Positions 8,059 to 61,938 of a stretch of 64,000 nt of DNA are shown piece by piece. The DNA lies in the NCBI GenBank assembly GCA_003251635.1, contig QKEW01000011.1, positions 39,411-103,410 on the forward strand. The letters are read 5' to 3'. The position numbers were made by a program, and so were the translations under genes. Below the pieces are notes generated by a model, which saw nothing but the letters and a program-made list of their open reading frames with translations, did not search any database and had not been told where the DNA came from. Each line of letters starts with the position of its first letter. Position 1 is the first letter of the stretch. The stretch comes from a bacterium (lineage in GTDB: Bacteria; Patescibacteriota; Minisyncoccia; Moranbacterales; GWC2-37-73).

Positions 8059-8138
8059 CGGTGCAAATAAATGATCGGATTTTCGTACTAGCCTCAGGCT
8101 TGTTCAAGTTTGAATTCTCTGGTAGGATTATCTGGTAA

Positions 8139-9557
8139 TTGATAAAACTATTTATGAAATCAGAAAAATTTTTTACACCCAAAAAAATAATAATTTTGGT
8201 GATTTTGGTCGCAATTTTCTTTGGCGGTTTTTATTTATTTTCCTATGCCAAAGAAAATAAAAAAACTATCGCTATCAGTTCTTTGGCGGTTTTGAAAAGT
8301 ATTTCCAAATTTTTACCAATCGAAAAGGATACTAAAAAAGAAATTGAAGCTCTCAATACTTTGGTTGAAAAGTTTACCGCCAAAGATGATCAGGAATATT
8401 CTTTCTTGCTTTTGCTGCAAAATAACATGGAGTTGCGACCGGGTGGCGGATTTTTGGGTCAATATGCGGTAATTAAAGTTAAGAATGGAGAAGTGGTTTC
8501 CAGTTTTTTCGAGGACGCTAACTTGCTCGATCAACGTATAACCGCCAGAGTTACTCCACCTTGGCCCCTTACTCAGTACATGCAAATTAAGAAATGGAAA
8601 TTTCGTGACTCTAATTTTTCACCAGATTTTCCGACTAATGTGGAGAAGGCTAAATATTTCTATCGTCTTAGTGGACGCTCCAGTGATGGTTTTGATGGGG
8701 TGATTGCGGTTAATGCCACGGTTCTTGATGATGTGTTGGCACTGACCGGTCCAGTCACGATTCCTGGTTACAATGTGACTTTAACCAAGGACAATGCAGT
8801 TCTAAAATTGGAGGAAATTGTGGAAAAAGCTTATTTGTTAAATGAAGACTTGGATACTCAAAATCGCAAAGCTATCATGAAAAGTTTGACTCCAGCCTTG
8901 ATTGAAAAACTTTTCTCTTTGGGTAACGTTACTAAATTGGCGGATTTTGCTCATGAACAAATCAGTAAAAAAAATATTATGATCAACTTTACTGACAGTC
9001 AGTTGCAAAGTTTGATTGAGGATGTGCATTGGGATGGTTCGGTGGCTCAAGATTGGGATGGGGATTATCTGATGGCGGTGGATGCTAATCTGGGCGCGTT
9101 TAAATCGGATTATTATGTTAAACGCTCTATTTCCTATGATGTTGATTTGACGCAGATTAAACCAGTAGCCACTTTGAAAATCACTTACAATCACACTGCT
9201 ACCTATGCTGATTGGCGCACCACTGATTATCATTCTTACTTGCGGGTTTATGTGCCGGAAGGTTCCAATTTGTTAGAACGTTACATGGTGGGTTATCCGA
9301 CCACTCAGACGGAATTGGGCAAAACCTATTTTGGTTTCAAGGTTGATGTTTTGATGAATCATCAATTGGAAACCATGATCAAATATGAACTCCCGGAAAA
9401 ATTTGCCCAACAAGATTATAAGCTTTTGGTTCAAAAACAATCCGGCTTGGATGATGTGCCGATTGAAATTCATGTCAAAACCAATGACGGGGAATTCAAT
9501 CACAGCGGAATTTTGGAAAAAGACTTGAAATTGGAATTTCAGACGGTTCAGGGGTAA
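8139..9557 (+). CDS. DUF4012 domain protein with an N-terminal TM anchor
   Basis: Signature LLLQNNMELRPGGGFLGQYAVIKV (the ELRPxGGF[IL]G motif of DUF4012). N-terminal TM helix IIILVILVAIFFGGFYLF. Confidence 0.75.
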   Translation: MIKLFMKSEKFFTPKKIIILVILVAIFFGGFYLFSYAKENKKTIAISSLAVLKSISKFLPIEKDTKKEIEALNTLVEKFTAKDDQEYSFLLLLQNNMELRPGGGFLGQYAVIKVKNGEVVSSFFEDANLLDQRITARVTPPWPLTQYMQIKKWKFRDSNFSPDFPTNVEKAKYFYRLSGRSSDGFDGVIAVNATVLDDVLALTGPVTIPGYNVTLTKDNAVLKLEEIVEKAYLLNEDLDTQNRKAIMKSLTPALIEKLFSLGNVTKLADFAHEQISKKNIMINFTDSQLQSLIEDVHWDGSVAQDWDGDYLMAVDANLGAFKSDYYVKRSISYDVDLTQIKPVATLKITYNHTATYADWRTTDYHSYLRVYVPEGSNLLERYMVGYPTTQTELGKTYFGFKVDVLMNHQLETMIKYELPEKFAQQDYKLLVQKQSGLDDVPIEIHVKTNDGEFNHSGILEKDLKLEFQTVQG

Positions 9558-22833: not shown

Positions 22834-22864
22834 ATCATTATTTTTAGAGCGAAAAAAAGATGGG

Positions 22865-22900
22865 ACGTACTGACGAACGTACGTACGTTCGTCAGTACGT
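22865..22900. repeat. Perfect 36-bp palindrome ACGTACTGACGAACGTACGTACGTTCGTCAGTACGT (copy 1 of a GTAC/ACGT-rich palindromic element family)
   Basis: It is its own reverse complement. It lies between the mraY stop and the pgk RBS. Related copies sit at 47783-47826 and 58751-58786. Confidence 0.85.
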
Positions 22901-22925
22901 GAGTTTAATTCATAAGGATAAAAAT

Positions 22926-23960
22926 ATGAAAAAGATTCAAGAGGCGGATTTGGTTGGAAAAAAAGTTTTGGTACGAGCGGATTTCAATGTGGGAGTTGTG
23001 GATGGAAAAATTGCGGAAAAATTTAAACTGGAGGCTTGCAAAGAAACTGTTGAGCATTTACTTTCCCAAAGTGAAACCAAGGTGGCCTTGTGTTCTCATT
23101 TGGGTCGGCCAGAAGGACAATTTAATGAAAAATTTTCCTTGAAGCAATTGGCTAGTGAGTTGGAGAATATTTTAACCAAAAAAATTGTTTTTGTGCCGGA
23201 AATTTCAGTGGAAAAAATTCAAGCTGCTTTGGAGGACCTAAATGAAGGAGAAATTTTACTGTTGGAAAATGTGCGTTTTTATCCGGGCGAGGAAAAAAAC
23301 GATAGCGAATTTTCCCAGCAATTGGCTGGAGCTTTTGATGTTTTTGTTAACGAGGCTTTCAGTGTGTGTCACCGGGACCAATCTTCAGTGACTGGCGTGA
23401 CGAAATTTCTGCCCAGCTATGCGGGCTTTTGGCTGCAAAAAGAAGTGGAAAACTTGGATCGAGTTTTAGATAATCCCGCCAAGCCGGCCGTGGCGATCAT
23501 TGGCGGAGCTAAAATTGAAACCAAGCTGCCTTTGATTGAAAAATTCGAAAAAATTTATGATCAGGTTTTGGTGGGTGGCATGGTGGCTAACGAAGCCTTG
23601 GATCAGAAAAAAACTTTTTCCGACAAGGTTATTTTGCCGCAGGATTTCGAGGGTGAGCGTTTGGACATTGGACCAAAAACCTTGGAACAGTTCAAGCAGA
23701 TTGTTGCAACGGCTAAGACCATTGTTTGGAACGGTCCCTTGGGTAAGTTTGAAGAAAAACCTTTTGACCGAGCCACGCGGGAAATTTTGCAGATGGTAGC
23801 TGAAAGCCAAGCTTTCACTTTGGTTGGCGGCGGCGAGTCGGTACAGGTTTTGGAAGAAAATGGCTGGTTGGATAAAATCTCATTTGTCTCCACCGGCGGC
23901 GGCGCCATGCTGGAATACCTCAGCGGCAACCCCATGCCGGGGATTGAGGGGTTGAAATAA
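22926..23960 (+). CDS. pgk: Phosphoglycerate kinase (short form)
   Basis: VLVRADFNVG, SHLGRPEGQ, and the C-terminus GGGESVQVL...VSTGGGAMLEYLSG. RBS AAGGA lies 8 nt upstream of ATG 22926. The 22 codons from 22860 in the ORF track are a read-through of the palindrome. Confidence 0.85.
   Translation: MKKIQEADLVGKKVLVRADFNVGVVDGKIAEKFKLEACKETVEHLLSQSETKVALCSHLGRPEGQFNEKFSLKQLASELENILTKKIVFVPEISVEKIQAALEDLNEGEILLLENVRFYPGEEKNDSEFSQQLAGAFDVFVNEAFSVCHRDQSSVTGVTKFLPSYAGFWLQKEVENLDRVLDNPAKPAVAIIGGAKIETKLPLIEKFEKIYDQVLVGGMVANEALDQKKTFSDKVILPQDFEGERLDIGPKTLEQFKQIVATAKTIVWNGPLGKFEEKPFDRATREILQMVAESQAFTLVGGGESVQVLEENGWLDKISFVSTGGGAMLEYLSGNPMPGIEGLK
23898..23960 (+). repeat. Native pgk 3'-terminal 63 nt (copy A of a direct-repeat triplet). 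It contains the hairpin CAACCCC-N14-GGGGTTG.
   Basis: Near-identical copies occur at 24510-24542 (partial) and 25770-25832 (full length, including the TAA). Confidence 0.85.
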
Positions 23961-24023
23961 GGGATTGAGTTAATGAGAGTCTGTGTAATGTTAATTGTTT
24001 GAATTCATTTTAAGTACAATGAT

Positions 24024-24494
24024 ATGATTGAAAATAATCCATGGAAACCAGAAAATGGACCCGAGAGTCAGCAGAATGAAGAAAACGACAGAGAGAAGAA
24101 TGCTAAGAATAGGTTATTTGAAGGAAGTCTGGGTTTAGGTAGAAATGATCCAATGGCGCTAAAAACATCAAGCGAAAGCGCTTACTGGGTGACTGGTGAG
24201 TCGCAAATTCAAGATATTATTGAAAGTGGCTATATAAGACCGCCTGTTGGTAAATTAAAAGGTGGACACAAGGGAGAGGTTCATTGGTCAAGGGGAGGTG
24301 ATAAATTGTTTTATCGTGATAAAAGACCAGTGTTGGAAATTGATAGGGATAAAATTTTAAATAGGGAAATAGGTGCTTTTAGAATAAGCGATTTGAAAGC
24401 GATCTGGGTGTTTGACGAAGAGAAGGGCACCTATGAGGATAAATTAAATGAAATTTTAGCCAAAAGCAAAAAAACTGATGATTTGGCTGATTAA
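24024..24494 (+). CDS. Hypothetical protein (cargo gene 1 between pgk-end repeats A and B)
   Basis: 156-aa ORF with no recognisable motif. It is bracketed by copies of the pgk 3' end. Confidence 0.45.
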   Translation: MIENNPWKPENGPESQQNEENDREKNAKNRLFEGSLGLGRNDPMALKTSSESAYWVTGESQIQDIIESGYIRPPVGKLKGGHKGEVHWSRGGDKLFYRDKRPVLEIDRDKILNREIGAFRISDLKAIWVFDEEKGTYEDKLNEILAKSKKTDDLAD

Positions 24495-24509
24495 TTTTTA
24501 ATAATTTGA

Positions 24510-24542
24510 AGCGGCAACCTCATGCCGGGGATTGAGGGGTTG
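24510..24542 (+). repeat. Partial degenerate copy (B) of the pgk 3' end
   Basis: AGCGGCAACCTCATGCCGGGGATTGAGGGGTTG matches pgk 23925-23957 with one substitution (C to T). Confidence 0.8.
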
Positions 24543-24588
24543 GGGTAGGGAGAAAGTTCGTACAATAACGAGTTGTGCAAAATTTTGG

Positions 24589-24616
24589 TTGACAAACCAT
24601 ACTTTTATAGTATAAT
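24589..24616 (+). promoter_or_regulatory. Near-consensus sigma-70 promoter (TTGACA, 16-nt spacer, TATAAT) with a downstream inverted repeat TTTACAG-N5-CTGTAAA and a direct repeat TGTAAACTGTAAACT
   Basis: The -35 lies at 24589-24594 and the -10 at 24611-24616. The operator-like inverted repeat at 24620-24645 overlaps the predicted +1 and RBS region of the 24647 gene. Confidence 0.6.
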
Positions 24617-24646
24617 AGTTTACAGTTATCTGTAAACTGTAAACTA

Positions 24647-25624
24647 ATGAAAACATCTGAAAAAATCCTACAATATATAACCGAAAAAAAGCAAGTAACC
24701 GTGCATGAGTTGGTTGACTATTTGGAAATTAGCCGAATGGCGGTTTCCAAACAGCTCAGCAATCTTATATCTGAAGGAAAAATAAATAAAACCGGAAAGC
24801 CACCCAAAGTGTTTTATTTTATTGCTGCTGAAAAAGATGAGTTGGAAAAAGGCAGTATCAAGATTGACCCAAAAATAAAAAATATTATAGAAAAAAACTT
24901 TCTGCTTATAACTCCATTTGGCCAACGATTGGAAGGATTGGAAGGTTTTATTTATTGGTGTCGGAAAACCAATCAATCAATTGAAAAATCGGCCGGTGAA
25001 TATGCGGACACGTGGAAAAAATATGATAAATTTAAGAAAAGCGGTTTGATTGATGGAATGGAAAAATTCAAACAAACTTTCAAGACAATTTATTTGGACA
25101 AGGTTTTTTATTTGGATTTTTACAGTATTGAGCGGTTTGGAAAAACGAAACTTGGCCAACTTTTATTGTATGCCAAACAGAGTCAAAATCGCAAGCTAAT
25201 AAAAGAATTAACTCAAATAATAAAACCGCAGTTGGATCATTTGCTCAAAAAATTCAATATAGACGGGATTGGTTTTATTCCCCCGACGGTAAAGCGCGAA
25301 GTTCAATTTATGAAGGAATTGGAAAAAAATTTACACCCAGACTTAAAAAAAGTATCTATTGTGAAAGTCCAATCAGACATAATGGTTCCCCAAAAAACCC
25401 TGAACAAATTGAAGGATCGTGTTGAAAATGCCAAAAGAACGATTGTTGTTGATGAATCAAGAAATTTTGAAAATATCTTGTTGGTGGATGATGCGATCGG
25501 TTCAGGAGCGACTCTCAATGAAACGGCGGAAAAAATCAGAGCTAGGGGCATTTGCCGAGGAAAAATAATCGGGCTTTCAATAACGGGAAGTTTCAAGGGT
25601 TTTGATGTTATAAATGAAGTTTGA
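24647..25624 (+). CDS. Winged-HTH plus phosphoribosyltransferase (ComF/PRTase type I-like) fusion protein (cargo gene 2)
   Basis: N-terminal wHTH (VTVHELVDYLEISRMAVSKQLSNLISEGKI). C-terminal PRPP-binding motif ILLVDDAIGSGATLNETAEKIRARG. Confidence 0.65.
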   Translation: MKTSEKILQYITEKKQVTVHELVDYLEISRMAVSKQLSNLISEGKINKTGKPPKVFYFIAAEKDELEKGSIKIDPKIKNIIEKNFLLITPFGQRLEGLEGFIYWCRKTNQSIEKSAGEYADTWKKYDKFKKSGLIDGMEKFKQTFKTIYLDKVFYLDFYSIERFGKTKLGQLLLYAKQSQNRKLIKELTQIIKPQLDHLLKKFNIDGIGFIPPTVKREVQFMKELEKNLHPDLKKVSIVKVQSDIMVPQKTLNKLKDRVENAKRTIVVDESRNFENILLVDDAIGSGATLNETAEKIRARGICRGKIIGLSITGSFKGFDVINEV

Positions 25625-25769
25625 CCAGGTCCGAGTCCCTTCGAAGCTTACTTGGCGGTTTTGAAGAGGTGAGAATGGCTGAAATTTGGTGAAAATAAAA
25701 AGGGATTAGATATCTTTATCAATCGTAGTTGTGATATAATTCAAACATAGTTAGTTCTGCCTAGCTTGT

Positions 25770-25832
25770 GGCGGCGCCATGCTGGAGTACCTCAGCGGCA
25801 ATCAAATGCCGGGGATTGAGGGGTTGAAATAA
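25770..25832 (+). repeat. Full-length degenerate copy (C) of the pgk 3' end, including the stop codon
   Basis: In the pgk frame it translates to GGAMLEYLSGNQMPGIEGLK*, against native GGAMLEYLSGNPMPGIEGLK*. Confidence 0.85.
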
Positions 25833-25855
25833 TTTTGTTTAGCTTAAAAATAAAA

Positions 25856-26611
25856 ATGAATAAAAAAACAAAAATAATCAGTGTGGTCGTGGTTATGGTT
25901 CTGCTGTTAGCATCTTCCTTGTATTTTCTTTTTCTGACAAAAAATAAGGAAAATAAAAACGAGGAAAATGGTGTGGCTGAAGCTGAGGCAGTAAAAGTGA
26001 ATGAAGAAAATTTTTGTTTGAAGTTTAATGAAAAAGGAGTTGAATATGTTGATCAGGAAATCGAAGCTTTAGTGAGTAGATATGCAAGTGCCAATGGTTC
26101 AGTTATTTCAAAAAACGAAATCTGTGCTTCTTTGTTGGCTGGTCGTGATTTGGCCTCGGACCTTGGAGATGAAGAGTTTTATAGTAAAGTGTTTACAGGT
26201 GAACCTGAAATTGAAGAGGGGATTATAAATAAATTGGAAGTATATATTGGGAGAACCAGAGCCGAAGAGGTTACTGAAGAATTATTTAGAGAAGCCAATG
26301 ATAAAAATGAGGAGCTCTTACTTAAAACACAAATCATTATGACATCTCCATATGCATTATTGTGTATTAGGGACAAAGGGTTTCTCACGGAGCCAAAATC
26401 AGGAGATCCTATATGTTTAAATAAAGTGAATGCTGATGATGTCTGGCCGAAAATAGAAGAAGAATATGGAGCCCAGTGGGGCGGGTGTGATTTTGCTATA
26501 GATAAAAGCAACAATACTTTTCAATACTGCGCAAAGGATATAAAGAATGACATTCTTTATAAATGCACGGAGAGTGGATGTGAAGAGGTGGTTGATACGG
26601 AGGATTTTTAA
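25856..26611 (+). CDS. Hypothetical exported Cys-rich protein with a signal-anchor
   Basis: N-terminal TM (IISVVVVMVLLLASSLYFLFL), then an acidic domain with about 8 Cys. The track start at 25835 is a TTG; ATG 25856 is more likely. An extended -10 (TGATATAAT) sits at 25732-25740. Confidence 0.5.
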   Translation: MNKKTKIISVVVVMVLLLASSLYFLFLTKNKENKNEENGVAEAEAVKVNEENFCLKFNEKGVEYVDQEIEALVSRYASANGSVISKNEICASLLAGRDLASDLGDEEFYSKVFTGEPEIEEGIINKLEVYIGRTRAEEVTEELFREANDKNEELLLKTQIIMTSPYALLCIRDKGFLTEPKSGDPICLNKVNADDVWPKIEEEYGAQWGGCDFAIDKSNNTFQYCAKDIKNDILYKCTESGCEEVVDTEDF

Positions 26612-26720
26612 TACGTATTATAATCATTACATGGTTTATTGCGGGGTGTATATTTTTTTGACTTTCACCCCGATTCAAGCTACAATTGGGCCAAGATAAG
26701 CTTGAATTTAATCAGGAAAA

Positions 26721-28577
26721 ATGGAGAAAAAAGAATCCGGTGAGTTTGAAAAATACCGCCAGGAAGTTGAAAAAGAGGTAGCGGCGGTCAAGATAAAAAT
26801 CGAAAAAGCCAGAAAGGAGTCCATTGGAATCAAATGGGCTGATTATGTTTTGGAAAAAATTCGCCAAGAGATTAAGGATAGTCTTGGCAGTGATTTGACC
26901 TTGAAAGATGATTTGATTGAATTGGTTTTGCCGCCCGCCCATGTTAAAGACGCTGATCTGTCTTGGGCGATTTTTGAGCTGGCTAAAAAAAATCAGGAAA
27001 ATCCAGCCAAGCTGGCAGAAAAAATTGCGCAAAAATTGAATGATTCCGAAGGTGATTTGATTGGAGAGGTTCAAACGGCCGGAGCTTTTGTTAATCTGAA
27101 ATTGCAAGTTGATAAGGTTTATTCTCAAATAATTTTGCAAATTTCCCGGTTAGGTGAAGACTATGGTCAAAGCGACTTGAATCAGGGAAAAGTGGCGGTG
27201 ATTGATTATTCCTCACCCAACATTGCCAAGCCGATCGGGGTGGGTCATTTGCGCTCCACTATTATTGGGCAAGCATTGGCTAATCTCTATCGTCGAACCG
27301 GCTATCAGGTTGTTTGTGATAATCACTTGGGAGATTGGGGCACCCAATTCGGCTCATTGATTTGGGCCTATCAAAATTGGGGCGACGAGGAAAAAATCGT
27401 TCAAAATCCAATTGAGGAATTGAAGAATCTCTATGTTAGGTTTCACGGTGAGTCTCAAGAAAAACCGGAAATTAAGGATGAAGCGCGCGAACTTTTTGCC
27501 CGATTGGAAAATGGTGATGCTAAAATGCTGGAACTTTGGAAACGTTTTCGAGATCTGAGCCTTCAGGATTTTGGTCGGGTCTATGAAAAATTGGGAGTGA
27601 AATTTGATTTGAATATTGGCGAAAGTTATTTTGTTGATCAGGCGGATGGATTGGTGGAGGAGTGTTTGAAAAAAGGCCTTTGCCAGAAAGCCCAAGACAG
27701 TGATGCGATTGTGGTTGAAGACTTGGACGGGTTGCCTTCATTTTTGCTGCGAAAAAATGATGGAACGAGCTTGTATTTATCACGTGACTTGGCGACCTTG
27801 ATTTTTCGTATCCAAAATTTTCAGCCCGAATCAATTCTCTATGTGGTTGGCAGCGAACAAGATTTAAATTTCAAACAATTTTTTGCTTTGGCTAAAAAGG
27901 CTGGTTATCTGTCAGACGGAGTTGAAGCTAAGCATATTAGCTTTGGTATGGTGACGGTGAATGGCAAGAAAATGTCGACTCGTCGGGGAACTTTGATTGA
28001 GTTGGATAAATTGATGGCTGAGTCGATTCAAAAATCGCGAGAGATTTTGCAAACCAAAGGCGAAGAGACTGACCCGGTTGAGTTGGAAAAAACAGCTGAA
28101 GTGGTTGGAATCGGGGCGATTATTTATAATGATCTGCGTCAATCTCGAGTTAAAAACATTTCTTTTGATTGGAAAAGGATGCTGGATCTGGAAGGAGCCA
28201 GTGCGGTTTATTTGCAATATTCCTATGTTCGAATTCAGTCGATTTTACGCAAGGCAACTGATGGATTTTCAGGCGATTTTGAGCAAAAGATTGAAAGGGC
28301 TAATTTTGAAAAGAGGTGCGAATTTGATTTGGCTCGCAAGCTGATGTTTTTTCCTGAAATTATCGCTAGGGCGCAAAAGACAGACGGTCCGCATCATTTG
28401 TGCGGTTATCTGGAGGAGTTGGCCATTTTGTTTAACAGTTTTTATAATGAAGTTCCGATTTTGAAAACTGAAGATGAGATTTTGCGCAGTTCTCGCTTGA
28501 GTTTGAGTTGGAGCGTGAGCAAGGTTTTGAAAATTGGTCTAAATTTGCTTAGTATTGATTTGCCGGAAAGGATGTAA
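26721..28577 (+). CDS. argS: Arginine--tRNA ligase
   Basis: Class I HIGH-region analogue PNIAKPIGVGHLRSTIIG, the MSTRRG (KMSKS-equivalent) motif, and a C-terminal DALR anticodon-binding domain. 618 aa. Confidence 0.85.
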   Translation: MEKKESGEFEKYRQEVEKEVAAVKIKIEKARKESIGIKWADYVLEKIRQEIKDSLGSDLTLKDDLIELVLPPAHVKDADLSWAIFELAKKNQENPAKLAEKIAQKLNDSEGDLIGEVQTAGAFVNLKLQVDKVYSQIILQISRLGEDYGQSDLNQGKVAVIDYSSPNIAKPIGVGHLRSTIIGQALANLYRRTGYQVVCDNHLGDWGTQFGSLIWAYQNWGDEEKIVQNPIEELKNLYVRFHGESQEKPEIKDEARELFARLENGDAKMLELWKRFRDLSLQDFGRVYEKLGVKFDLNIGESYFVDQADGLVEECLKKGLCQKAQDSDAIVVEDLDGLPSFLLRKNDGTSLYLSRDLATLIFRIQNFQPESILYVVGSEQDLNFKQFFALAKKAGYLSDGVEAKHISFGMVTVNGKKMSTRRGTLIELDKLMAESIQKSREILQTKGEETDPVELEKTAEVVGIGAIIYNDLRQSRVKNISFDWKRMLDLEGASAVYLQYSYVRIQSILRKATDGFSGDFEQKIERANFEKRCEFDLARKLMFFPEIIARAQKTDGPHHLCGYLEELAILFNSFYNEVPILKTEDEILRSSRLSLSWSVSKVLKIGLNLLSIDLPERM

Positions 28578-28617
28578 TTTTTCCACAATTATTGTGATTT
28601 AAATTAGTTTTGAAGAT

Positions 28618-29799
28618 ATGAAAAAAAAGAAACAGCGAAAAAAAGATTTGCTGGCCACCTTTTTTCTAATAGGCTGCGCTTTGTTTAGCTTGGGGGCCTA
28701 TTATTTTTTGGCGAGTGAAAAAAAGACTAATATTTTAGACGGTCGCGAAGTTGAAATTGAAAATATTGAACAAAGCGGATTGGGAATAATGGATGAAATT
28801 GAAGAGGAAATTCTGGAAAACGATGCTGAAAATTTACAAGTAATTGAATTGGATGAAGAAAGTGAAACGGAGACGGAAAATCCAGCAATAGAAGTGGGAG
28901 GATTGGAGGTGGATGAATCTTTGATTGGAGATAATGTTCTTTTTCCGGCCAGGGCTTTCTCGGTCCCTAAAGTCAAAAGAAATGATCCAGATGAAATTCG
29001 AATCGGTTTTATTACTGATTTGCATGTTCGCAGTGATGCGGATGAGATTGGCAATCGTTATTTTAAGCAAAGATTTACTGATCGAATCAACTATTTTGTG
29101 GAAAAAATGAATGATGATTTTGTGCCCAATTTTATTTTGGTTGATGGGGATTTGATTGAAGGCACCAATGTTTCTCCGGACAAGGGTTTTGTGGAGTTGT
29201 CTTTAATAAAGCAACTTTTTGATCAAACTATTTTGTCAAAATATTGGGTGATTGGTAATCATGATTTGCGCTCGGTAAACAAAGAACAATTCAAAAAAGC
29301 TTTGGATATTGATTATACTAGTAAAGCTTTTGAAGTTGGAAATTATAAGATTATAATTTTGGATAGTAATTTTGATGAAAATGACGAAGATATTGTTCCG
29401 GGTGAATATTATACGCGCGGGCATCTGTCCCAATATCAGATTAATTTTCTCGAGAATGAGTCGAAAAATACCGACAAGCGAGTTTTGGTTTTTGTTCATC
29501 ATCCAATACTGTGGGATATGAACGGCTTGTCTAATAACAAGTTTCCAGATAATACACTGAAAGTTCGGGAAATTTTTTCTGAAAATAGCGTCCTGGGAGT
29601 TTTCTCTGGGCATATCGAAGATTTATTTTTTGGTAAAATGGACGGAGTGAACTATTTCGTTTCACCTGGAATTGAGAAAAATGAGAAATACCAAGGAACT
29701 TTCTGTGAAATTACCATCAAAAAAAGCAAAATAACCATTGAAATGACTTATCTGAAAAAAGGTAAATATAAAACTGTGAAAATTGAAAGAGAGGAATAA
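28618..29799 (+). CDS. Membrane-anchored calcineurin-like metallophosphoesterase
   Basis: N-terminal TM. Metal-binding motifs GFITDLH, VDGDLIEG, VIGNHD, VFVHHP and GHIE. Confidence 0.75.
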   Translation: MKKKKQRKKDLLATFFLIGCALFSLGAYYFLASEKKTNILDGREVEIENIEQSGLGIMDEIEEEILENDAENLQVIELDEESETETENPAIEVGGLEVDESLIGDNVLFPARAFSVPKVKRNDPDEIRIGFITDLHVRSDADEIGNRYFKQRFTDRINYFVEKMNDDFVPNFILVDGDLIEGTNVSPDKGFVELSLIKQLFDQTILSKYWVIGNHDLRSVNKEQFKKALDIDYTSKAFEVGNYKIIILDSNFDENDEDIVPGEYYTRGHLSQYQINFLENESKNTDKRVLVFVHHPILWDMNGLSNNKFPDNTLKVREIFSENSVLGVFSGHIEDLFFGKMDGVNYFVSPGIEKNEKYQGTFCEITIKKSKITIEMTYLKKGKYKTVKIEREE

Positions 29800-29822
29800 A
29801 TCTTTTTTCTGGCCTTTTATTC

Positions 29823-29850
29823 TTGACATTTTCAAAAGACCTGTTAATAT
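29823..29850 (+). promoter_or_regulatory. Strong sigma-70 promoter (TTGACA, 16 nt, TGtTAATAT extended -10) driving the ncRNA candidate
   Basis: The -35 lies at 29823-29828. The TGn at 29842-29843 plus TAATAT at 29845-29850 form an extended -10. Confidence 0.6.
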
Positions 29851-29857
29851 AGTTGCA

Positions 29858-30210
29858 GATCTTTTTCATAACGAGGTCGTGGCCTTTGGTCACGGTTTTA
29901 TCTAGTGATCGGGGGCTCTTCGGGTAGGGGGGATTGCTAGATAAAATGGAATTGGGTGTGTCTAGGTTTATTTTTTAGCTCATCCAATTCTACCTCGGCC
30001 GTTTAAAGTCTTGCTTGCGCGCTATTACTTCCAAACCGTTCGGTTGTTCGATTAACAACACCTGCTAGCGGAATTGGTCTGTTAGAGGGGTGTGCGAAGT
30101 GTGCGCGCAAGCAAGTTAATGAAAAAACAAACCTTGATAGGTCAACATGGGGTTCATGATTTGAACCCGTAATGTTATCGTTGAAGCTATCAAGGTTTTT
30201 ATTTTTGCTT
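29858..30210 (+). ncRNA. Structured ncRNA candidate of about 350 nt, family unassigned. It is GC-rich and multi-domain, bounded by its own promoter and an intrinsic terminator.
   Basis: Nested long-range helices: CGAGGT/ACCTCG (29872-77 with 29993-98), ATCTAG/CTAGAT, a 13-bp helix CTTGCTTGCGCGC/GCGCGCAAGCAAG (30001-13 with 30093-105), and an 11-bp terminal helix AACCTTGATAG/CTATCAAGGTT (30140-50 with 30188-98) followed by TTTTATTTTT. A C-UUCG-G tetraloop is present. No long ORF in sense. GC is well above the window average. Strand is inferred from the promoter and terminator. Confidence 0.5.
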
Positions 30211-30254
30211 GAAACCCTTGGGACCTTTTGAGGATTTTGAAAAAATGATATAAT

Positions 30255-31382
30255 TTGAACATGAAAATCGGAATTGATGCGCGTTTTTTCGGACCCATTG
30301 GCAAGGGTCTGGGACGCTATGCGCAAAAACTAATTGAAAATCTGGAGAAAGTTGATCAGGAAAATGACTATGTCATTTTTTTGCGCAAGGAAAATTTTGC
30401 CGACTATGTGCCAAAATCACCAAACTTTAAGAAGGTCTTAGCTGATTATCGCTGGTATGGTTTTGGTGAACAACTTTTTTTTCCAATTTTGCTCTATCGG
30501 CAACGTCTGGATGTCATGCATTTTCCGCATTTCAATGTCCCGCTTTTGTATCGCAAAAAAATAATAGTGACCATTCATGATCTGATTTTGTTGCATTTCC
30601 CAACTTTGCGAGGCACAACCTTGAGCCCGCTTTGGTATAAGATAAAATTTTTAGCCTACAAGCTAACGATCGGATCTGCTTTGCGTCGAGCCCGAAAAAT
30701 TATTGCAGTTTCCCAGTCGACTAAAAAAGACATTTTGAAAAATTATTCGATAAGTCCGGAAAAAATTGATGTGACTCATGAGGCGGTTGATCCTCTTTGC
30801 TATTTTTCGCTAGAGTCGACAGATAAAGTTTTGGAAAGATATGGAATAATTGGCCCCTATCTTCTCTATGTTGGCAATGCTTATCCGCATAAAAATTTGG
30901 AAAAATTGATCGAGGTTTTTGCTCGGTTGAGAAAAAATAAATCTGAAATGAATTTAGTTTTGGTTGGAAAGGAAGATTTTTTTTATCGACGACTCAAGGA
31001 GTTGGTCGAGAAAAATGAAATCAAGGGGGTGATTTTTCCTGGGTTTATTTCAGATGAGGATTTGAGTTCGGTTTATCGCCGGTGTGAAGCCTATGTTTTT
31101 CCTTCTTTGTATGAGGGGTTTGGTTTGCCGCCGTTGGAAGCAATGCTTTTGGGGGTGCCAGTTTTGAGCAGCGATCATTTTTGTATGAAAGAGGTTTTAG
31201 GCGAAAGTGCACTTTTTTGTGACGCAAAAAATAACGAATCATTATTGAAAGGCCTGGAAAGAATAATAGATGATCAAGCTCTGCGAAAGAATTTGATTGA
31301 AAAAGGTTATCTCCAGAGTCTTTTATATAGTTGGCAACAGATGGCTGGGCAAACGCAAAAAAATTACCAGGAAATAAAATAA
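30255..31382 (+). CDS. Glycosyltransferase, family 4
   Basis: YVFPSLYEGFGLPPLEAMLLGVPVLSSD (EX7E motif). The track start is a TTG; ATG 30261 (MKIGIDARFF) is more likely. Confidence 0.8.
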   Translation: MNMKIGIDARFFGPIGKGLGRYAQKLIENLEKVDQENDYVIFLRKENFADYVPKSPNFKKVLADYRWYGFGEQLFFPILLYRQRLDVMHFPHFNVPLLYRKKIIVTIHDLILLHFPTLRGTTLSPLWYKIKFLAYKLTIGSALRRARKIIAVSQSTKKDILKNYSISPEKIDVTHEAVDPLCYFSLESTDKVLERYGIIGPYLLYVGNAYPHKNLEKLIEVFARLRKNKSEMNLVLVGKEDFFYRRLKELVEKNEIKGVIFPGFISDEDLSSVYRRCEAYVFPSLYEGFGLPPLEAMLLGVPVLSSDHFCMKEVLGESALFCDAKNNESLLKGLERIIDDQALRKNLIEKGYLQSLLYSWQQMAGQTQKNYQEIK

Positions 31383-31395
31383 AAACAGAAAGATT

Positions 31396-33969
31396 GTGAG
31401 CAAGAAAAGAATAATAAAACCTATGTTTGATATTCGTCCGGTTGATCCTAAGACCGGTGATTTGGATTGGGAAAAAATAAGAAAAGTTAGTCAAAATGCC
31501 AACATTAGGAATTTTGTTCGTGAATATAATAAAAGCGCAAAACCCAGCTCGGCTGATCTTTCGAAAAAAAATCTTGAAAATGGTTCCAGGGAAAAAATAA
31601 ATAAAAAAACCTCCAAAGATAATAAATTCCAAAAAATTAAAGAGGTGGCTCGAAATCAGGAGAATATAGATAATGCTCCGCCAGTTCATCCAGCCTTTTT
31701 TGATAAAAAGAGAAAAACAGTCCCAGCTGCCAAATTGGATCGCATAAGAAAAAGGGCGGAAAAAAAGTTTCTAAAAAGTCAAAAAAATCAAGAAAAATTT
31801 GCTCGCAACTTTCATAAAAGAAAAGAGAAAGAACGAAAACGATTTGAAAAACAACTTTCTCACGAAGAAAAGAAGAAAAATAAAAAATTATCCAAGTTTG
31901 AAAAAAAGAACCCTCAAAAAGATTCGATCGGCCGCCTTTTTTTCGAGGACATGGCATTTTCTTTCAAAAAAGAAAGTCGTGGAAACCAAAAGAGTTTTAG
32001 GATTTTTATCGTTTTGCTTTTATTTTTTGCTTTACTGATTGGTTTGCTTTCTTTGGGTTACTGGGGATTAAAGATAAAAAACAACGCTTTAATTTTTAGT
32101 CAGGACGGATATTTCAATATAAAATTAGCCGTAAGTCAGGTTAGTCGGCAAAACTTTGAAGACTCTCAGAAAAATTTTTCACAGGCTGCCATTTCCTTCC
32201 AAAAAGCTTCAGAGGAGGTCGGTCAGATGGGAACTGTCGTGGAAAAAGTTTCTCGTTTCTTTCCCTATCTTTCCAAAGTTTCTTCTGCTAAGAATGTTTT
32301 AGAGGCGGCTAATCATCTTTCTTTGGCTGGAACTAAAATCAACGAAATTGTCGAGGAGGTTTTTGCGCTCAAGAATCTTTCGGATAAAGGACAGATTTCC
32401 ATGTTGGAAGAGTTGAAGAAAGCGACTTTGAAGTTGGAGACAGTGCGATCCGAGTTGTCAGTGGCTCAGAAAAATATCGATTTGGTTAAAGTGGATGATT
32501 TGCCTGAAGAATTTCGAGAAAAGTTTGTTTTACTAAAAACCGAATTGCCAGACATGATCAGTTTGACGGATTCCTTTTTGAATAATGGTTATATTTTTTC
32601 CGACATGCTTGGTAGTCAAGGCCCGCGAAAATATCTATTTTTATTTCAAAACAACAATGAGATGAGAGCTACGGGCGGATTTATCGGAAGTTATGGTCTT
32701 TTGGATATTTCCAATGGTCGAGTGAAAAATTTTTTTATTGACGGGATTTTTAATCCGGATGGACAATTGATTGATAAGGTTGTTCCGCCAGAGCCAATTC
32801 AGAAGATTAGTGCCGCTTGGAGTTTGCACGATAGTAATTGGTTTGCTGATTTTCCAACTTCAGCTCAGGAGGCGATTGTGTTTTACGAGAAAACCGGTGG
32901 TCCAACCGTTGATGGCGTGATCACCTTGACGCCGACAGTTTTGCAAAAATTATTGAAAGTCACCGGGCCAATTGAAATGCCTGACTATGATGTGATTTTA
33001 GATAGTGATAATTTCATAGAAAAAACCCAATATGAAGTTGAAGTTGATTATGATAAAGAAGAAAATAAGCCCAAAGAAATTTTATCTGATCTGGCTCCAA
33101 TATTGTTGGATAGAATTTCCAAAACAACTGAGCCGGAAAAGGTTTTGGGATTTTTGAAGGTTTTATCGGATAGTCTCAAGGAAAAACACATTTTGATTTA
33201 TTCGGAGAATGCTGATTTGCAAAAAATAATTTCCCAGCAGGGCTGGTCGGGTGAAATTCTTGATTCTCAAAAAGATTACCTGAGTGTGGTAAACACGAAT
33301 ATAAATGGATTCAAAACGGATGGAGTTATTGAGGAAGATATTAATCAGGAGGTTGAAATTTCTGATGACGGGTCGATTGTGGATACGGTTTCCATTACGC
33401 GGCGGCATAATGGCGGAGACACTCCCTATGAATGGTGGAACAAGGTTAATGCTAATTATTTAAGAATTTATGTCCCCTTAGATTCGGAGCTGATTAGCGT
33501 TGAAGGCCAAACTCGCGAATTTGTTGAGCCGCCTTTGGATTATGACAAACTGGGATTCAAACGAGACGAAGCGGTTCAGCAAGAAGCAGATTCTATTTTA
33601 CTCGACGAGCAAACTAACACGCGAATTTATCAGCAAAATGGCAAGACGGTTTTTGCTAATTGGACTTATGTTAGTCCAGGAGAAGAAGTAACAGTGGTTT
33701 ATAAATATAAATTACCTTTCCGTCTTTTTTCAGCCATGTTCAATTCTTCCTTAAAAAATCAGGTTGATTCCTACTCATTATTAGTGCAAAAACAATCCGG
33801 TAGCTTGGGAAGTGATTTCAATTTGAATTTAACCTATCCTTCAAACTATCAAATTGATTGGACTCAACCGAATAATTCTTCTCAGGAAAGTCAGACTTTT
33901 TCATTGACTGAAAAGCTGGATATTGATAGATTTATCGGAGTTGTTTTTGAGAAAGATTTGGAAAATTAA
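31396..33969 (+). CDS. DUF4012 domain protein with a long lysine-rich cytoplasmic N-terminal tail and a TM anchor
   Basis: DUF4012 signature LFLFQNNNEMRATGGFIGSYGLLDISNG. Residues 40-190 are highly basic (KKRK.., KEKERKRFEK.., KKKNKKLSKFEKK). TM helix IFIVLLLFFALLIGLLSLGYW. GTG start; the ATG at 31423 is an alternative start. Confidence 0.75.
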   Translation: MSKKRIIKPMFDIRPVDPKTGDLDWEKIRKVSQNANIRNFVREYNKSAKPSSADLSKKNLENGSREKINKKTSKDNKFQKIKEVARNQENIDNAPPVHPAFFDKKRKTVPAAKLDRIRKRAEKKFLKSQKNQEKFARNFHKRKEKERKRFEKQLSHEEKKKNKKLSKFEKKNPQKDSIGRLFFEDMAFSFKKESRGNQKSFRIFIVLLLFFALLIGLLSLGYWGLKIKNNALIFSQDGYFNIKLAVSQVSRQNFEDSQKNFSQAAISFQKASEEVGQMGTVVEKVSRFFPYLSKVSSAKNVLEAANHLSLAGTKINEIVEEVFALKNLSDKGQISMLEELKKATLKLETVRSELSVAQKNIDLVKVDDLPEEFREKFVLLKTELPDMISLTDSFLNNGYIFSDMLGSQGPRKYLFLFQNNNEMRATGGFIGSYGLLDISNGRVKNFFIDGIFNPDGQLIDKVVPPEPIQKISAAWSLHDSNWFADFPTSAQEAIVFYEKTGGPTVDGVITLTPTVLQKLLKVTGPIEMPDYDVILDSDNFIEKTQYEVEVDYDKEENKPKEILSDLAPILLDRISKTTEPEKVLGFLKVLSDSLKEKHILIYSENADLQKIISQQGWSGEILDSQKDYLSVVNTNINGFKTDGVIEEDINQEVEISDDGSIVDTVSITRRHNGGDTPYEWWNKVNANYLRIYVPLDSELISVEGQTREFVEPPLDYDKLGFKRDEAVQQEADSILLDEQTNTRIYQQNGKTVFANWTYVSPGEEVTVVYKYKLPFRLFSAMFNSSLKNQVDSYSLLVQKQSGSLGSDFNLNLTYPSNYQIDWTQPNNSSQESQTFSLTEKLDIDRFIGVVFEKDLEN

Positions 33970-33975
33970 ATAAAT

Positions 33976-35619
33976 ATGATCAGTAAATTAGCGAAAAACA
34001 ATTTTTTTAATGGCCGAGCTATCGGATCAATTGTGCAAGCTGCCATGATAATTTCTTTGATGGGAATAGCCAGTCGAGTCCTGGGTCTTTTTCGTGATCG
34101 AATCTTGGCTTCAACTTTTGGCGCTGGAGACATTTTGGATGCTTACTACGCTGCTTTTCGGGTTCCTGATTTGATTTATAGTCTTTTGATTTCCGGAGCT
34201 TTGAGCGCAGCTTTTATTCCGGTTTTTACTCAATTGATTTCTCATGGAAAAGAAAAGAAAGCTTGGGATTTAGCCAGTGGTATTTTGAATATCCAAATTG
34301 TTTTTATGGGTCTTTTGGCTTTGATTTTGTCCTTGTTTGCACCTTTTCTGATGAAATTGATCACACCTGGTTTTGAGGGTCCGAAAATGGATCTGACCGT
34401 TAACTTAACCAGAATCATGTTTTTAAGTCCGATAATTTTGGGGATTAGCGGAATTTTTGGCGGAATTCTAGTTTCGATGAAGAAATTTTTTGTCTATTCT
34501 TTGGCGCCGATAATGTATAATTTAGGAATAATTTTCGGGGCGGTTTTTTTGGTTAAGATTTTGGGTCCAGCTGGTTTGGCCTGGGGTGTGGTTTTAGGGG
34601 CTGTTCTTCATATGCTAATTCAATATCCAGCGGTAAAATTTTCCGGTTTCAATTTGAGGGTGAATTTTTCCCAGATTTTTCACAGCAAAGAAGCTTTGCA
34701 AATTTTCCACTTGATGATTCCAAGAGTGTTGGGGGTAGCCATAAACCAGGTTAATTTTTTGGTTATTACGATTTTTGCCTCAACTTTGGCGGCGGGCAGT
34801 TTGGCTATTTTTAATTTTGCTAACAATATCCAAAGCGTACCCCTGGGTCTTTTTGGAATATCTTTTGCCATTGCAGCTTTTCCAACTTTAAGTACCCATT
34901 ATGCCAAAAATGAGGAGAAAGAATTTATCAATGTTTTTTCTAAAACTTTGCGCCAAATTCTTTTTTTTGTGATTCCTTTCAGTGTTTTGATTTATGTGCT
35001 TAGAGCTCAAATTGTTCGGGTTATTTTGGGTAGTGGAAATTTTGACTGGGAAGATACGATTTTAACTTTCAACACGCTGGGAATTTTGGCCTTGAGTTTA
35101 TTTGCCCAATCCTTGATTCCGCTTTTAGCTCGGGCTTTTTATGCTATTTGCAATACCAAGACACCTTTTTATGTGGCGCTTTTTTCCGAAGCGATTAACA
35201 TTGCTCTGGTTGTTTGGCTTATCGGTGAGTATAAAATTTTGGGTCTGGCCATAGCTTTTTCAGTCTCCAGTTTGGTCAACATGCTTTTGTTGGTTGTTTT
35301 GTTGGGTAAAAAATTTCATTACTTAAAAGAAATTAATAGCAAACAAACAATTTTAAAGATAATTTTGGCTTCTTTGCTGGCTGGCTTGGCGGCTCAAATT
35401 GGAAAAATTTTAGTTGGGACGCGAGGCGAGCTGGATACTTTTTTGGAAATCCTAGTTCAGCTGATTTTGGCTGGAGGACTAGGTTTTGGAATCTTTGCTA
35501 TAAGTTGCTATTTTTTAAAGGTGGAAGAATTTTTCAGTTTTGCCAATTCGATCGGTCGAAAAATTTTTCGAAGTAAAAAATACATAAATGAAAGCACAAC
35601 GGATGTTACGGGACTTTAG
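33976..35619 (+). CDS. murJ: Lipid II flippase MurJ (MviN)
   Basis: FGAGDILDAYYAAFRVPDLIYSLLISGALSAAFIPVF is the MurJ N-terminal signature. About 14 TM helices. Confidence 0.85.
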   Translation: MISKLAKNNFFNGRAIGSIVQAAMIISLMGIASRVLGLFRDRILASTFGAGDILDAYYAAFRVPDLIYSLLISGALSAAFIPVFTQLISHGKEKKAWDLASGILNIQIVFMGLLALILSLFAPFLMKLITPGFEGPKMDLTVNLTRIMFLSPIILGISGIFGGILVSMKKFFVYSLAPIMYNLGIIFGAVFLVKILGPAGLAWGVVLGAVLHMLIQYPAVKFSGFNLRVNFSQIFHSKEALQIFHLMIPRVLGVAINQVNFLVITIFASTLAAGSLAIFNFANNIQSVPLGLFGISFAIAAFPTLSTHYAKNEEKEFINVFSKTLRQILFFVIPFSVLIYVLRAQIVRVILGSGNFDWEDTILTFNTLGILALSLFAQSLIPLLARAFYAICNTKTPFYVALFSEAINIALVVWLIGEYKILGLAIAFSVSSLVNMLLLVVLLGKKFHYLKEINSKQTILKIILASLLAGLAAQIGKILVGTRGELDTFLEILVQLILAGGLGFGIFAISCYFLKVEEFFSFANSIGRKIFRSKKYINESTTDVTGL

Positions 35620-35756
35620 GGATTTTTTGCGGATAATCTTTTAGCTATTTCATGCTTTCTTTTTTGTTTTTTTAGTTTTTTGAATTTTGTGCTAAAATAA
35701 TATTGAAAGTCAGCTCGATTTTTGTCTGATTTGAAATAAAAAGTAAAAGGAAAAGC

Positions 35757-47782: not shown

Positions 47783-47826
47783 GTCAGTACGCACGTACTG
47801 ACGAACGTACGTACGTTCGTACTGAC
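47783..47826. repeat. GTAC/ACGT-rich compound palindrome (copy 2): GTCAGTACGCACGTACTGACGAACGTACGTACGTTCGTACTGAC
   Basis: It shares the 28-nt core ACGTACTGACGAACGTACGTACGTTCGT with copy 1. Its outer arms GTCAGTACG and CGTACTGAC are reverse complements of each other. Confidence 0.8.
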
Positions 47827-47860
47827 AAAAATAATTATTTTTATTGGCAGTCTCTCGAAA

Positions 47861-58197: not shown

Positions 58198-58599
58198 GTG
58201 CCAAATAAAAATGAATTGGTTGGTGTTGGATCTTTTGTTTATTTATGTGAGCAAAAGATAATTCTTTACATAGAAGAAGCAACGCGGGAGAAAGACGGAA
58301 TTTTTGCCAAATGTTTGTCGTTGGATAATTTTGAGCGACACGAGTTGTCTTTTTCGTTTCCAAAAGGCGAAAGGTGCAAATCGGGAACCGTCCTAGTTTG
58401 TCATTTTGAAGGAGTGAAAATGGCATTGGATTGGGAAATTAAAAAAATAAGGCGAGGTAGGCTAGGCCAAGTGGCCGAGAAAAATCTACCTAAATATGTT
58501 GCAAGATTAAATGAGTTTTTTATCAACAAAAACTTAGCGAAAAAAAATTTATTTTCTCTGGAGATTCTAAAAAAAGATTTATATCAACCTGTTTGGTAA
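58198..58599 (+). CDS. Hypothetical protein (133 aa)
   Basis: ORF followed by the terminator-like hairpin AGCGATTCGGG-aaaaa-CCCGGTCGCT and a T-run at about 58690-58730. Confidence 0.4.
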   Translation: MPNKNELVGVGSFVYLCEQKIILYIEEATREKDGIFAKCLSLDNFERHELSFSFPKGERCKSGTVLVCHFEGVKMALDWEIKKIRRGRLGQVAEKNLPKYVARLNEFFINKNLAKKNLFSLEILKKDLYQPVW

Positions 58600-58750
58600 A
58601 AAGGAGGATTGGTGTGACATATGAAAGGATAGACTTAATTTTAGCCCCTGGCCCAGGCAAGATGAGTAAAGTTTGTATCGCAAGCGAAATAAAGCGATTC
58701 GGGAAAAACCCGGTCGCTTTTTTTATTTTAATTTTAGATTGATCTTGGAG

Positions 58751-58786
58751 CACGTACGTACGTCCGTCAGTACGTTCGTACGTACG
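58751..58786. repeat. GTAC/ACGT-rich palindromic element (copy 3): CACGTACGTACGTCCGTCAGTACGTTCGTACGTACG
   Basis: It shares a 20-mer with copy 1 at 19 of 20 positions (ACGTACGT[T/C]CGTCAGTACGT) and is flanked by self-complementary CGTACGTACG units. Confidence 0.75.
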
Positions 58787-58810
58787 AAAATAAAATCATT
58801 AAATTAAAAA

Positions 58811-61335: not shown

Positions 61336-61938
61336 ATGTCGGAAACTCTCGAGGTATTGTTTGGTTCTAAAGCTAAAACTAGGATTTTGCGGTGTTTTTT
61401 GCTCAATCCGGAAACTGAATTTTCTGCGACTCAGTTGGCTAAGAAAAATATGCTAACTCCTTTGCAGGTGCGCAAGGAATTGAATGTTTTAAAAAAAATA
61501 AGATTTGTTAATCAAAAAAACCGCCGAAAACAAAATGTTTATAGTTTGAATAATGATTTTCATTTCTGCGCCGAATTAAAAAGTTTGTTTGCCAAATCCA
61601 ATAGTCATCCTCAAAGTAAAAATTTGAGCAAGATCAAGATGATCGGAGACGTCAGATTGGTTTTGATTAGTGGGATATTTCTTAATTATTCCAAGGGTAA
61701 AGTCGATATGATTTTGGTTATCAATAATGTTGATCGCGCCAAGTTGAAAAAATTCATGAGCGCTTTGGAGGCTGAAATTGGCAGGGAGGTTGGTTTTGTT
61801 TTAATGAATACTGATGAATTCAAATATCGTTTGGACATGCTGGATCGTTTCTTGATTGATTTCCTGGAGGGTCCTTATAGTGAAATTGTCAACAAAATTC
61901 CAGGTTTAAAGAGGTTTGTGATGGGTCTTAGAAAATAA
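61336..61938 (+). CDS. Winged-helix DNA-binding protein with a C-terminal alpha/beta domain (hypothetical regulator)
   Basis: N-terminal wHTH TRILRCFLLNPETEFSATQLAKKNMLTPLQVRKELNVLKKIRFV. 200 aa. Confidence 0.4.
   Translation: MSETLEVLFGSKAKTRILRCFLLNPETEFSATQLAKKNMLTPLQVRKELNVLKKIRFVNQKNRRKQNVYSLNNDFHFCAELKSLFAKSNSHPQSKNLSKIKMIGDVRLVLISGIFLNYSKGKVDMILVINNVDRAKLKKFMSALEAEIGREVGFVLMNTDEFKYRLDMLDRFLIDFLEGPYSEIVNKIPGLKRFVMGLRK

Follow-up and report, generated by a model that had tools for sequence, protein, structure and literature searches.

Three copies of the pgk 3' end around two single-gene inserts in a Moranbacterales genome: possible nested, target-duplicating insertions with a footprint that recurs around wHTH-PRTase genes

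The stretch of DNA analysed here (64,000 nt, hereafter the window; contig QKEW01000011.1 of a member of the Moranbacterales) carries a phosphoglycerate kinase gene, pgk, whose 3' end is present three times. The three tails bracket two genes, one for a 156-aa protein and one for a fusion of a winged helix-turn-helix to a phosphoribosyltransferase domain (wHTH-PRTase), and genes of the latter family were enclosed by direct repeats in most of the other genomic contexts inspected. This triplication is read here as the outcome of two nested, target-duplicating insertions of single-gene, conflict-type cassettes, brought about by functions encoded outside the islet; the probability of this reading is put at about one half. 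To our knowledge, bacteria of the Candidate Phyla Radiation (CPR, or Patescibacteria) possess tiny genomes with very few recognisable mobile elements, and their gain of accessory and defence genes is poorly understood. At the pgk locus, accessory genes have accumulated behind an essential glycolytic gene that was left undisrupted, with no recognisable recombinase, and the same kind of footprint was displayed time and again, at unrelated sites, by one cassette that is very widespread (more than 3000 homologues). The features on which the argument turns are all on the forward strand:

22926..23960, + strand: pgk (phosphoglycerate kinase), 344 aa from the ATG at 22926; Pfam PGK, 4.1e-110
23898..23960, + strand: copy A, the native pgk end and functional tail, ...GGAMLEYLSGNPMPGIEGLK followed by the stop
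23961..23969, + strand: mini-copy GGGATTGAG, 9 nt of the tail core, directly 3' of the pgk stop
24024..24494, + strand: cassette X, 156-aa protein between A and B, weak ADP-ribosyltransferase (ART)-like fold
24510..24548, + strand: copy B, a 33-nt pgk-tail repeat (24510-24542) plus GGGTAG, which reads SGNLMPGIEGLG and a stop in the pgk frame
24647..25624, + strand: cassette Y, 325-aa wHTH-PRTase between B and C; N-terminal ArsR/MarR-like winged helix, C-terminal ComF-like / PRTase-CE domain
25770..25832, + strand: copy C, a displaced 63-nt pgk tail, GGAMLEYLSGNQMPGIEGLK and a stop, from sequence alignment to A

The N-terminus MKKIQEADL agreed with that of relatives and fixed the pgk start at 22926; the start in the list of open reading frames (ORFs), 22860, falls inside a palindrome. 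Copies A and C were identical at 59 out of 63 positions, the four differences being GAA>GAG, AAC>AAT and CCC>CAA, so that two of the three codons concerned were changed silently. Over its 33 nt, copy B was identical to A at 32 positions and to C at 30, and its TAG stop fell exactly at the position of the pgk stop. The codon at which A, B and C differ (P, L and Q, respectively) was the sole hypervariable position of the tail among orthologues, which displayed E, K, L, D, I or P. Copy C is not translated as pgk, since a stop lies six codons upstream of it. A first-pass annotation, made from the letters of this DNA, had reported the recurrence of the last 63 nt of pgk at 25770-25832 and of a 33-nt part at 24510-24542, together with the two ORFs lying between the copies, and alignment bore out all of this; its count of five differences between A and C has to be lowered to four.

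The window contains the 21-nt core ATGCCGGGGATTGAGGGGTTG three times; none of 100 shuffles contained it, even when three mismatches were allowed. The pgk-tail repeats were the strongest direct-repeat family of the window, where nothing else repeats in this manner; the longest identical stretch between copies was 27 nt and the left boundaries of B and C were 24 nt apart. The 9-mer GGGATTGAG was found seven times in the window against 0.89 expected, four of the seven being at this locus, and the mini-copy at 23961-23969 is perhaps either a scar of the junction or a short insertion copied from a template. At several positions the core nucleotides common to A, B and C differed from those of every relative, which places the origin of all three tails in this lineage. 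The DNA between the copies displayed a GC content of 0.35-0.38 versus 0.44 in pgk. Sequences 3' of A, B and C were mutually unrelated, and for this reason a simple tandem duplication of the kind seen in L159 (below) was rejected.

Could an assembler have concatenated the tails of co-existing strains? The sample is a metagenome, the tails look allelic, and a contig of the Logan assembly of SRR7216773 ends at window position 22871, which is 55 nt before the pgk start. Such an artefact is nevertheless very unlikely, because this independent assembly was 100 % identical over 10,754 nt, every junction included, and because the identical stretches (27 nt at most) are below usual assembly k-mers. Furthermore, the junctions between the end of X and B and between the right arm of Y and C are unique sequences that must exist in reads, and the contig broke not at the pgk-tail repeats but inside a perfect 36-nt palindrome (22865-22900), 26 nt upstream of the pgk ATG. 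This palindrome belongs to an ACGT-rich family of palindromic intergenic repeats found at 22863-22906, 47791-47834 and 58750-58801 of the window.

The best matches of pgk were metagenome-assembled genomes (MAGs) of Moranbacteria, the closest pgk in any collection being 73 % identical. Thirteen loci from nine distinct Moranbacteria relatives displayed the order ScpA-ScpB-S11 peptidase-MraY-pgk-(~200-aa membrane protein)-enolase-PfkB-FtsA/PilM, with a single pgk tail each and a pgk-enolase distance of 549-940 nt versus 11,797 nt in the window. The same upstream and downstream gene blocks were present in the window, where the place of the ~200-aa gene was taken by X, Y, a Cys-rich 251-aa gene, ArgRS (26721), a metallophosphatase, GT4, a DUF4012 protein and MurJ (33976). 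As the nine relatives keep MraY-pgk-(~200-aa gene)-enolase without any duplicate, the genes behind pgk in the window are derived, and the earlier notion that the DNA between the copies was inserted gains support from these single-tail loci. The part bracketed by pgk tails represents only the first 1.87 kb of the pgk-enolase interval. No remnant of the ~200-aa membrane-protein gene was detected in the window by tblastn. Neither pgk nor protein searches of genomes and metagenomes disclosed a near-isogenic empty site: relatives with a single tail had pgk genes at most 73 % identical and different downstream genes. The empty site predicted earlier, pgk followed directly by the Cys-rich gene, was thus not encountered, relatives having pgk, the ~200-aa membrane-protein gene and enolase instead.

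The interval between pgk and enolase (23961-35756, 11.8 kb) was peculiar to this lineage; beyond copy C it was devoid of flanking repeats, and it includes two essential genes, those for ArgRS and MurJ.

Duplications at pgk ends were also observed in two other loci. L159 (JAESFJ010000259.1) displayed at 9117-9432 a tandem duplication, 158 nt in length, that covers the pgk 3' end and a hairpin downstream of it; it starts at the GGnGGnGCC codons where copy C also starts, with GGTGGTGG as microhomology at both borders. The Moranbacteria-like L085 (Ga0172374_1000409) displayed at 7780-8470 five head-to-tail pgk 5' ends of 72-78 nt in three alleles, the last being the real pgk start, and each was preceded by a palindromic element CCAGTCGAGGACCGTCCTCGAC and a leader; this stacking of 5' ends mirrors the stacking of 3' ends in the window, but without cargo genes. 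Both are independent duplications at pgk ends and were counted in favour of target-duplicating insertion.

The inserts were small (0.55 kb for X and 1.25 kb for Y) and each contained a single gene. The following features accompany cassette Y or follow copy C:

24589..24616, + strand: promoter of the wHTH-PRTase gene, TTGACA-16-TATAAT, 12/12 match to the sigma-70-type consensus
24618..24644, + strand: operator-like inverted/direct repeat GTTTACAG-TTAT-CTGTAAAC-TGTAAAC (GTTTACAG..CTGTAAACTGTAAAC)
25625..25769, + strand: right arm of cassette Y, a 145-nt non-coding stretch homologous neither to pgk nor to any fetched locus
25839..25857, + strand: leader-like motif TTAGCTTAAAAATAAAAAT; in the closest relative, L168, the same sequence immediately follows the pgk stop
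25856..26611, + strand: Cys-rich 251-aa protein with an N-terminal transmembrane segment, outside the repeats and first gene of a further 9.9 kb before enolase

Both cargo genes look like conflict or defence genes. The protein of cassette X displayed neither a Pfam nor a PADLOC match and was rare, with eight homologues (best 69 % identity, in a Magasanikbacteria genome), all in unrelated contexts. Flanking repeats were sought around these homologues and none were found; the footprint is therefore tied to the wHTH-PRTase cassette and the pgk site, not to gene X. The wHTH-PRTase matched HTH_11/ArsR-type families, PRTase-CE below the curated cut-off, and PsyrT of PADLOC at 5.5e-14. In type III-A retrons, a PRTase domain joined to a winged helix serves as the effector (PMC7736814); a PRTase domain is likewise part of the ShosT/PsyrT toxins (PMC12961424). 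Compared with these PRTase conflict effectors (retron type III-A, PMC7736814 and PMC12746101; ShosT/PsyrT, PMC12961424; PRTase-CE) and with ComFC (PDB 7p0h), the gene found here stands alone and its wHTH domain is N-terminal. No partner gene of PRTase systems (reverse transcriptase (RT) with non-coding RNA, DprA-like, RecQ-like or other helicase) was present beside it, its neighbours being pgk, the 156-aa gene and the Cys-rich gene.

The wHTH-PRTase family was large (3132 hits) and its best non-self members displayed 60-70 % identity. Seven genomic contexts were inspected, namely the window and loci L162, L165, L176, L178, L181 and L183; all seven neighbourhoods were different and the gene had no constant neighbours among them. 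For each context, the 450 nt upstream of the gene were aligned to the 450 nt downstream, with the following flank-alignment scores:

window: 51
L162: 43
L165: 40
L176: 92
L181: 44
L183: 57
L178: 24 (no repeat)

Shuffle controls displayed means of 19-23, standard deviations of 2-3 and a maximum of 34. Direct repeats thus bracketed the gene in six out of seven contexts (five out of six outside the window); they were 28-60 nt long and 75-97 % identical, and their sequences were unrelated between genomes. In four cases the right repeat began 5-20 nt after the stop codon, and left repeats were situated 64-139 nt upstream of the ATG. Only three of 84 control genes from the same loci reached a score of 40 (Fisher's exact p = 8.6e-7), and two of these three, the 156-aa gene of the window and an EamA gene in L162, adjoin the cassette and share its repeat family. 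The third, at 6863-7433 of L181, codes for a 23S-rRNA intervening-sequence protein (PF05635), displays a direct repeat of ~60 nt and is not adjacent to the wHTH-PRTase gene.

Among the six repeat-flanked copies only the promoter-operator region was conserved, and there were no terminal inverted repeats. The near-consensus promoter noticed earlier turned out to match the consensus at all 12 positions, and a promoter-like stretch containing TTGACA occupied the corresponding position in L162, L165, L176 and L181, four of the five other repeat-flanked cassettes, none being recognised in L183. The operator-like repeat was the sole part of the left arm conserved in these four loci; it was diverged in L183, where no match was found. 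It is probably the site at which the wHTH domain regulates its own gene. Since the other cassettes are bracketed by unrelated local repeats, the pgk tail is most likely a duplicated target and not an attachment site borne by the element.

Several of these loci deserve separate mention. At 4872-7054 of L162, three terminator-like repeats (AACCTCGC...GCGAGGTTTTTTGATA) bracket the EamA gene and the wHTH-PRTase gene, which is the same architecture of three copies and two cassettes as at pgk. In L178 (2457-3248) and L181 (3066-3863) the wHTH-PRTase gene was situated directly downstream of a toxin-antitoxin pair of the AbiEi/AbiEii type; AbiE neighbours in two independent contexts suggest defence-islet neighbourhoods. 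An imperfect palindrome, CGAGGACCGTCCT(C/T)G, was found beside the cassette in L176 (5985-6005) and resembles one present at every junction of the pgk 5' copies in L085, so that it may be a shared recombination-prone or repetitive extragenic palindromic (REP)-like element in Moranbacteria.

Terminator-like hairpins flank the cassette in L162, L176 and L181, which is what would be expected if the repeat were a functional cis element (a terminator, attenuator or protein-binding site) re-used after each gene. At pgk this is very unlikely. The repeated sequence is simply the coding tail of pgk, displayed no Rfam match near threshold and no T-tract after the stem, and differs in sequence from the conserved operator of the wHTH gene; folding of A, B and C was no better than that of shuffles (z of 0.21, 0.85 and -1.81, respectively). 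The 7-bp hairpin formerly proposed as a recombination core was present only in A; it would depend on a G-U pair in B, and CAATCAA in C abolishes it. Nor do three copies represent a conserved regulatory feature of relatives, as all 13 loci had a single tail.

The search for recombination machinery covered the ORFs of at least 120 aa scanned in the window, and integrase and transposase families of Pfam were absent from these, in line with the lack of an integrase stated in the first-pass annotation; five ORFs of 120-200 aa (for example 58198-58599, 61336-61938 and 63107-63469) were outside the scan, as was the rest of the 123-kb contig. No recombinase genes were called in the six other wHTH-PRTase contexts. 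IMG/VR returned no match to the exact 21-nt core, to a degenerate pgk-tail pattern, to either cargo protein or to a wHTH-PRTase profile, and plasmid and phage collections had no tblastn match to the wHTH-PRTase protein.

These results bear on the classic explanation, according to which two small circles with pgk-tail-like attP sites would have integrated in tandem at an attB in pgk, the integrase being encoded elsewhere or lost, to give a decayed array resembling cis-mobilizable elements (CIMEs). The first-pass annotation had accordingly taken the repeat for the attachment (att) site of the element. The direct repeats do include the 3' end of the target with its ORF kept intact, as expected of gene-3'-end integrative elements: every copy keeps its in-frame stop at an identical position, and B, ending in GLG and a stop, constitutes a complete alternative tail. 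A block of 21 nt is identical in all copies while its flanks differ, and the differences affect synonymous sites and the hypervariable codon, as for alleles that were once functional. In addition, the distal copy C abuts the leader motif that also stands right after pgk in the closest relative. This TTAGCTTAAAAATAAAAAT motif may weakly mark the ancestral pgk-downstream junction; as proof of that junction it was downgraded, a 15-nt version being present upstream of pgk in L166 and L167, so that it is maybe a generic leader. Outward displacement by successive integrations is documented for tycheposons (10.1101/2020.12.28.424599). On the other hand, besides the failure to find an integrase in the ORFs scanned or in the other cassette contexts, related cassettes displayed unrelated repeats and targets, which is unexpected for one integrase/att family, and, at sites where all database relatives differ, the pgk-like nucleotides of B and C agree exactly with this lineage, which argues against a portable, conserved attP. 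The left boundaries of B and C do not coincide, the hairpin core is not conserved, IMG/VR yielded no contig bearing the tail or the cassette, and the phage and plasmid collections yielded no relative of the wHTH-PRTase. Site-specific integration is accordingly considered possible rather than probable; it stays alive because the GGGTAG of B, the allele-like differences and the unusual duplication length are poorly explained by nested target duplication.

Likeness to established classes of element was partial. Phage 21 and e14 integrate in icd, and ICESt1 and ICESt3 in fda, carrying a surrogate gene end. The pgk islet shares with them a repeat taken from the 3' end of the target, a restored ORF, a displaced tail at the far end, differences between copies that are mostly silent, and a central-metabolism gene as target; it differs in that they possess their own integrase and one conserved att core, while at pgk no integrase was found and elsewhere the repeats are unrelated. 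The six flanking repeats had neither a core nor a target in common and the seven neighbourhoods differed. Two properties of CIMEs, att-like flanks and the lack of recombination genes, were displayed by the islet, and neither the window nor IMG/VR disclosed a cognate integrase-bearing element. In tycheposon islands, successive integrations push older elements outward and leave partial-target repeats and degenerate elements (10.1101/2020.12.28.424599). Stacked units, partial-target repeats and integrase-less defence or adaptation cargo are common to the pgk islet, to CIMEs with tandem accretion and to such islands (10.1101/2020.12.28.424599), but CIME and tycheposon arrays need a cognate integrase-bearing element and a fixed att site (tRNA or gene end), neither of which was found here. 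The pgk islet is composed of repeat-bracketed cassettes without a recombinase of their own, resembling gene-3'-end integrators but lacking their integrase and their shared att site.

Integron cassettes, including clusters of attC sites lacking integron-integrases (CALINs), and Xer-dependent pdif modules are single-gene units with short, often hairpin-capable repeats whose enzyme is encoded elsewhere. A single gene without its own recombinase between short repeats is likewise found at pgk, but attC sites are defined by R''/R' cores and pdif by 11-6-11 Xer sites and, by inspection, neither the pgk tail nor the other flanking repeats displayed either; the wHTH-PRTase cassette also has its own promoter, unlike most integron cassettes. 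An integron cassette or CALIN was rejected on account of the opposite polarity of CAACCCC...GGGGTTG, the absence (by inspection) of a RYYYAAC/GTTRRRY pair, the non-significant fold and the failure to find IntI. For a Xer module (integrative mobile element exploiting Xer, IMEX, or pdif), no 11-6-11 dif-like dyad was seen in the repeats, by eye only; the locus is not a replication terminus, because cumulative GC skew rises monotonically across it. An insertion sequence (IS) or DDE transposon was dismissed as the ends were neither conserved nor inverted among the six copies, no transposase was found and repeat length varied between 28 and 63 nt. A diversity-generating retroelement (DGR) was rejected too: no RT family was present in the scanned window ORFs, and the mismatches between A and C include C/T and A/G in opposite directions and are not adenine-specific.

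Long and variable target duplications are produced by IS of the IS1634/IS1549 type, by Cas1-Cas2 when CRISPR repeats are duplicated, and by replication template switching (microhomology-mediated break-induced replication, MMBIR, or fork stalling and template switching, FoSTeS). The direct repeats found here resemble the products of these mechanisms in being target-derived, tens of nt long and variable in length, and in the short templated re-copy GGGATTGAG at the junction; they differ in the lack of terminal inverted repeats, transposase and Cas1. We know of no preference of template switching for one particular gene.

Recombination driven by homology, either by RecA (Campbell-type) or through transformation, might have stacked pgk-tail alleles of sister strains beside accessory genes via 33-63 nt of homology. 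The three tails are allele-like (NP, NL and NQ; ending in K or G before the stop) with lineage-specific nucleotides, the stop codon marks the precise end of the homology, the ORFs scanned included no recombinase gene, and CPR bacteria generally encode competence machinery. This nevertheless only displaces the problem, since something must first put a pgk tail on both sides of the cargo; besides, 33-63 nt at 94-97 % identity are marginal for RecA, an ordinary double crossover between syntenic strains leaves no duplication, and the unrelated repeats around the same cassette in other genomes stay unexplained. We therefore hold it to be improbable.

Under the favoured reading of nested target duplication, a self-promoted wHTH-PRTase cassette would first have entered the pgk end and duplicated ~57-63 nt, giving rise to C and to the ancestor of A and B; the 156-aa ART-like gene would then have entered at the same point and duplicated 33-39 nt, giving rise to A and B. 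We infer this order from the divergence of the copies, C being older and A/B younger because A and B differ at one out of 33 positions while C differs from each at three out of 33; the nested boundaries (63 nt for C; 33-39 nt for B, which is closest to A) fit the two successive landings proposed in the first-pass annotation. The duplicated sequence would belong to the target and not to the element. Throughout, pgk would have stayed functional since every copy ends with an in-frame stop, as that annotation had proposed. Elsewhere in Patescibacteria the same cassette (~1.05-1.25 kb, comprising promoter, operator, ORF and a short tail) would have landed with duplication of 28-60 nt of local sequence. 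As no recombinase was found in the islet, insertion is attributed to factors presumably encoded elsewhere. The most likely route is a staggered break with fill-in, or a replication template switch, at gene ends that are often hairpin-capable; the exact re-copying of GGGATTGAG at the junction of A and X is what template switching would be expected to leave.

Several points weigh against nested target duplication. Copy B ends with GGGTAG versus AAATAA, that is four A>G changes in six nt versus a single change in the preceding 33, which is hard to explain by drift; otherwise both inserts would have entered after GGGGTTG, each supplying a codon and a stop. The differences, silent or in a hypervariable codon, look more like three functional alleles than like the decay of dead copies. 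Known bacterial insertion mechanisms do not usually duplicate as much as 30-60 nt of their target. The repeats of L162, L176 and L181 form hairpins and could be members of terminator- or REP-like families dispersed through the genome instead of marking insertions. Finally, no near-identical strain with an empty site was available (closest pgk 73 % identical), and L178, one of the seven contexts, is without flanking repeat.

In a bolder variant, which is tentative and rather unlikely, the wHTH-PRTase gene would be the cargo or even the active agent of an undescribed, recombinase-less single-gene mobile cassette that inserts beside gene ends with 30-60-nt duplication; pgk would be one instance, its entry point re-used by a second gene, and the ComF-like PRTase joined to a winged helix could itself help to handle DNA as insertion proceeds. 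The recurrent footprint hints at an undescribed way of moving single genes. A dedicated mechanism, if true, would add a new route by which genes move in a large share of bacterial diversity, and duplicated gene ends would become a practical marker of recent insertions in MAGs. If template switching is responsible, the locus would document recombinase-independent reshuffling of single genes in streamlined genomes.

Farther along the window, an 822-aa protein (55512-57980) displayed weak matches to TrwB/TraG (type IV coupling protein) and to HerA-like proteins, and was the only conjugation- or DNA-translocation-like gene seen there.

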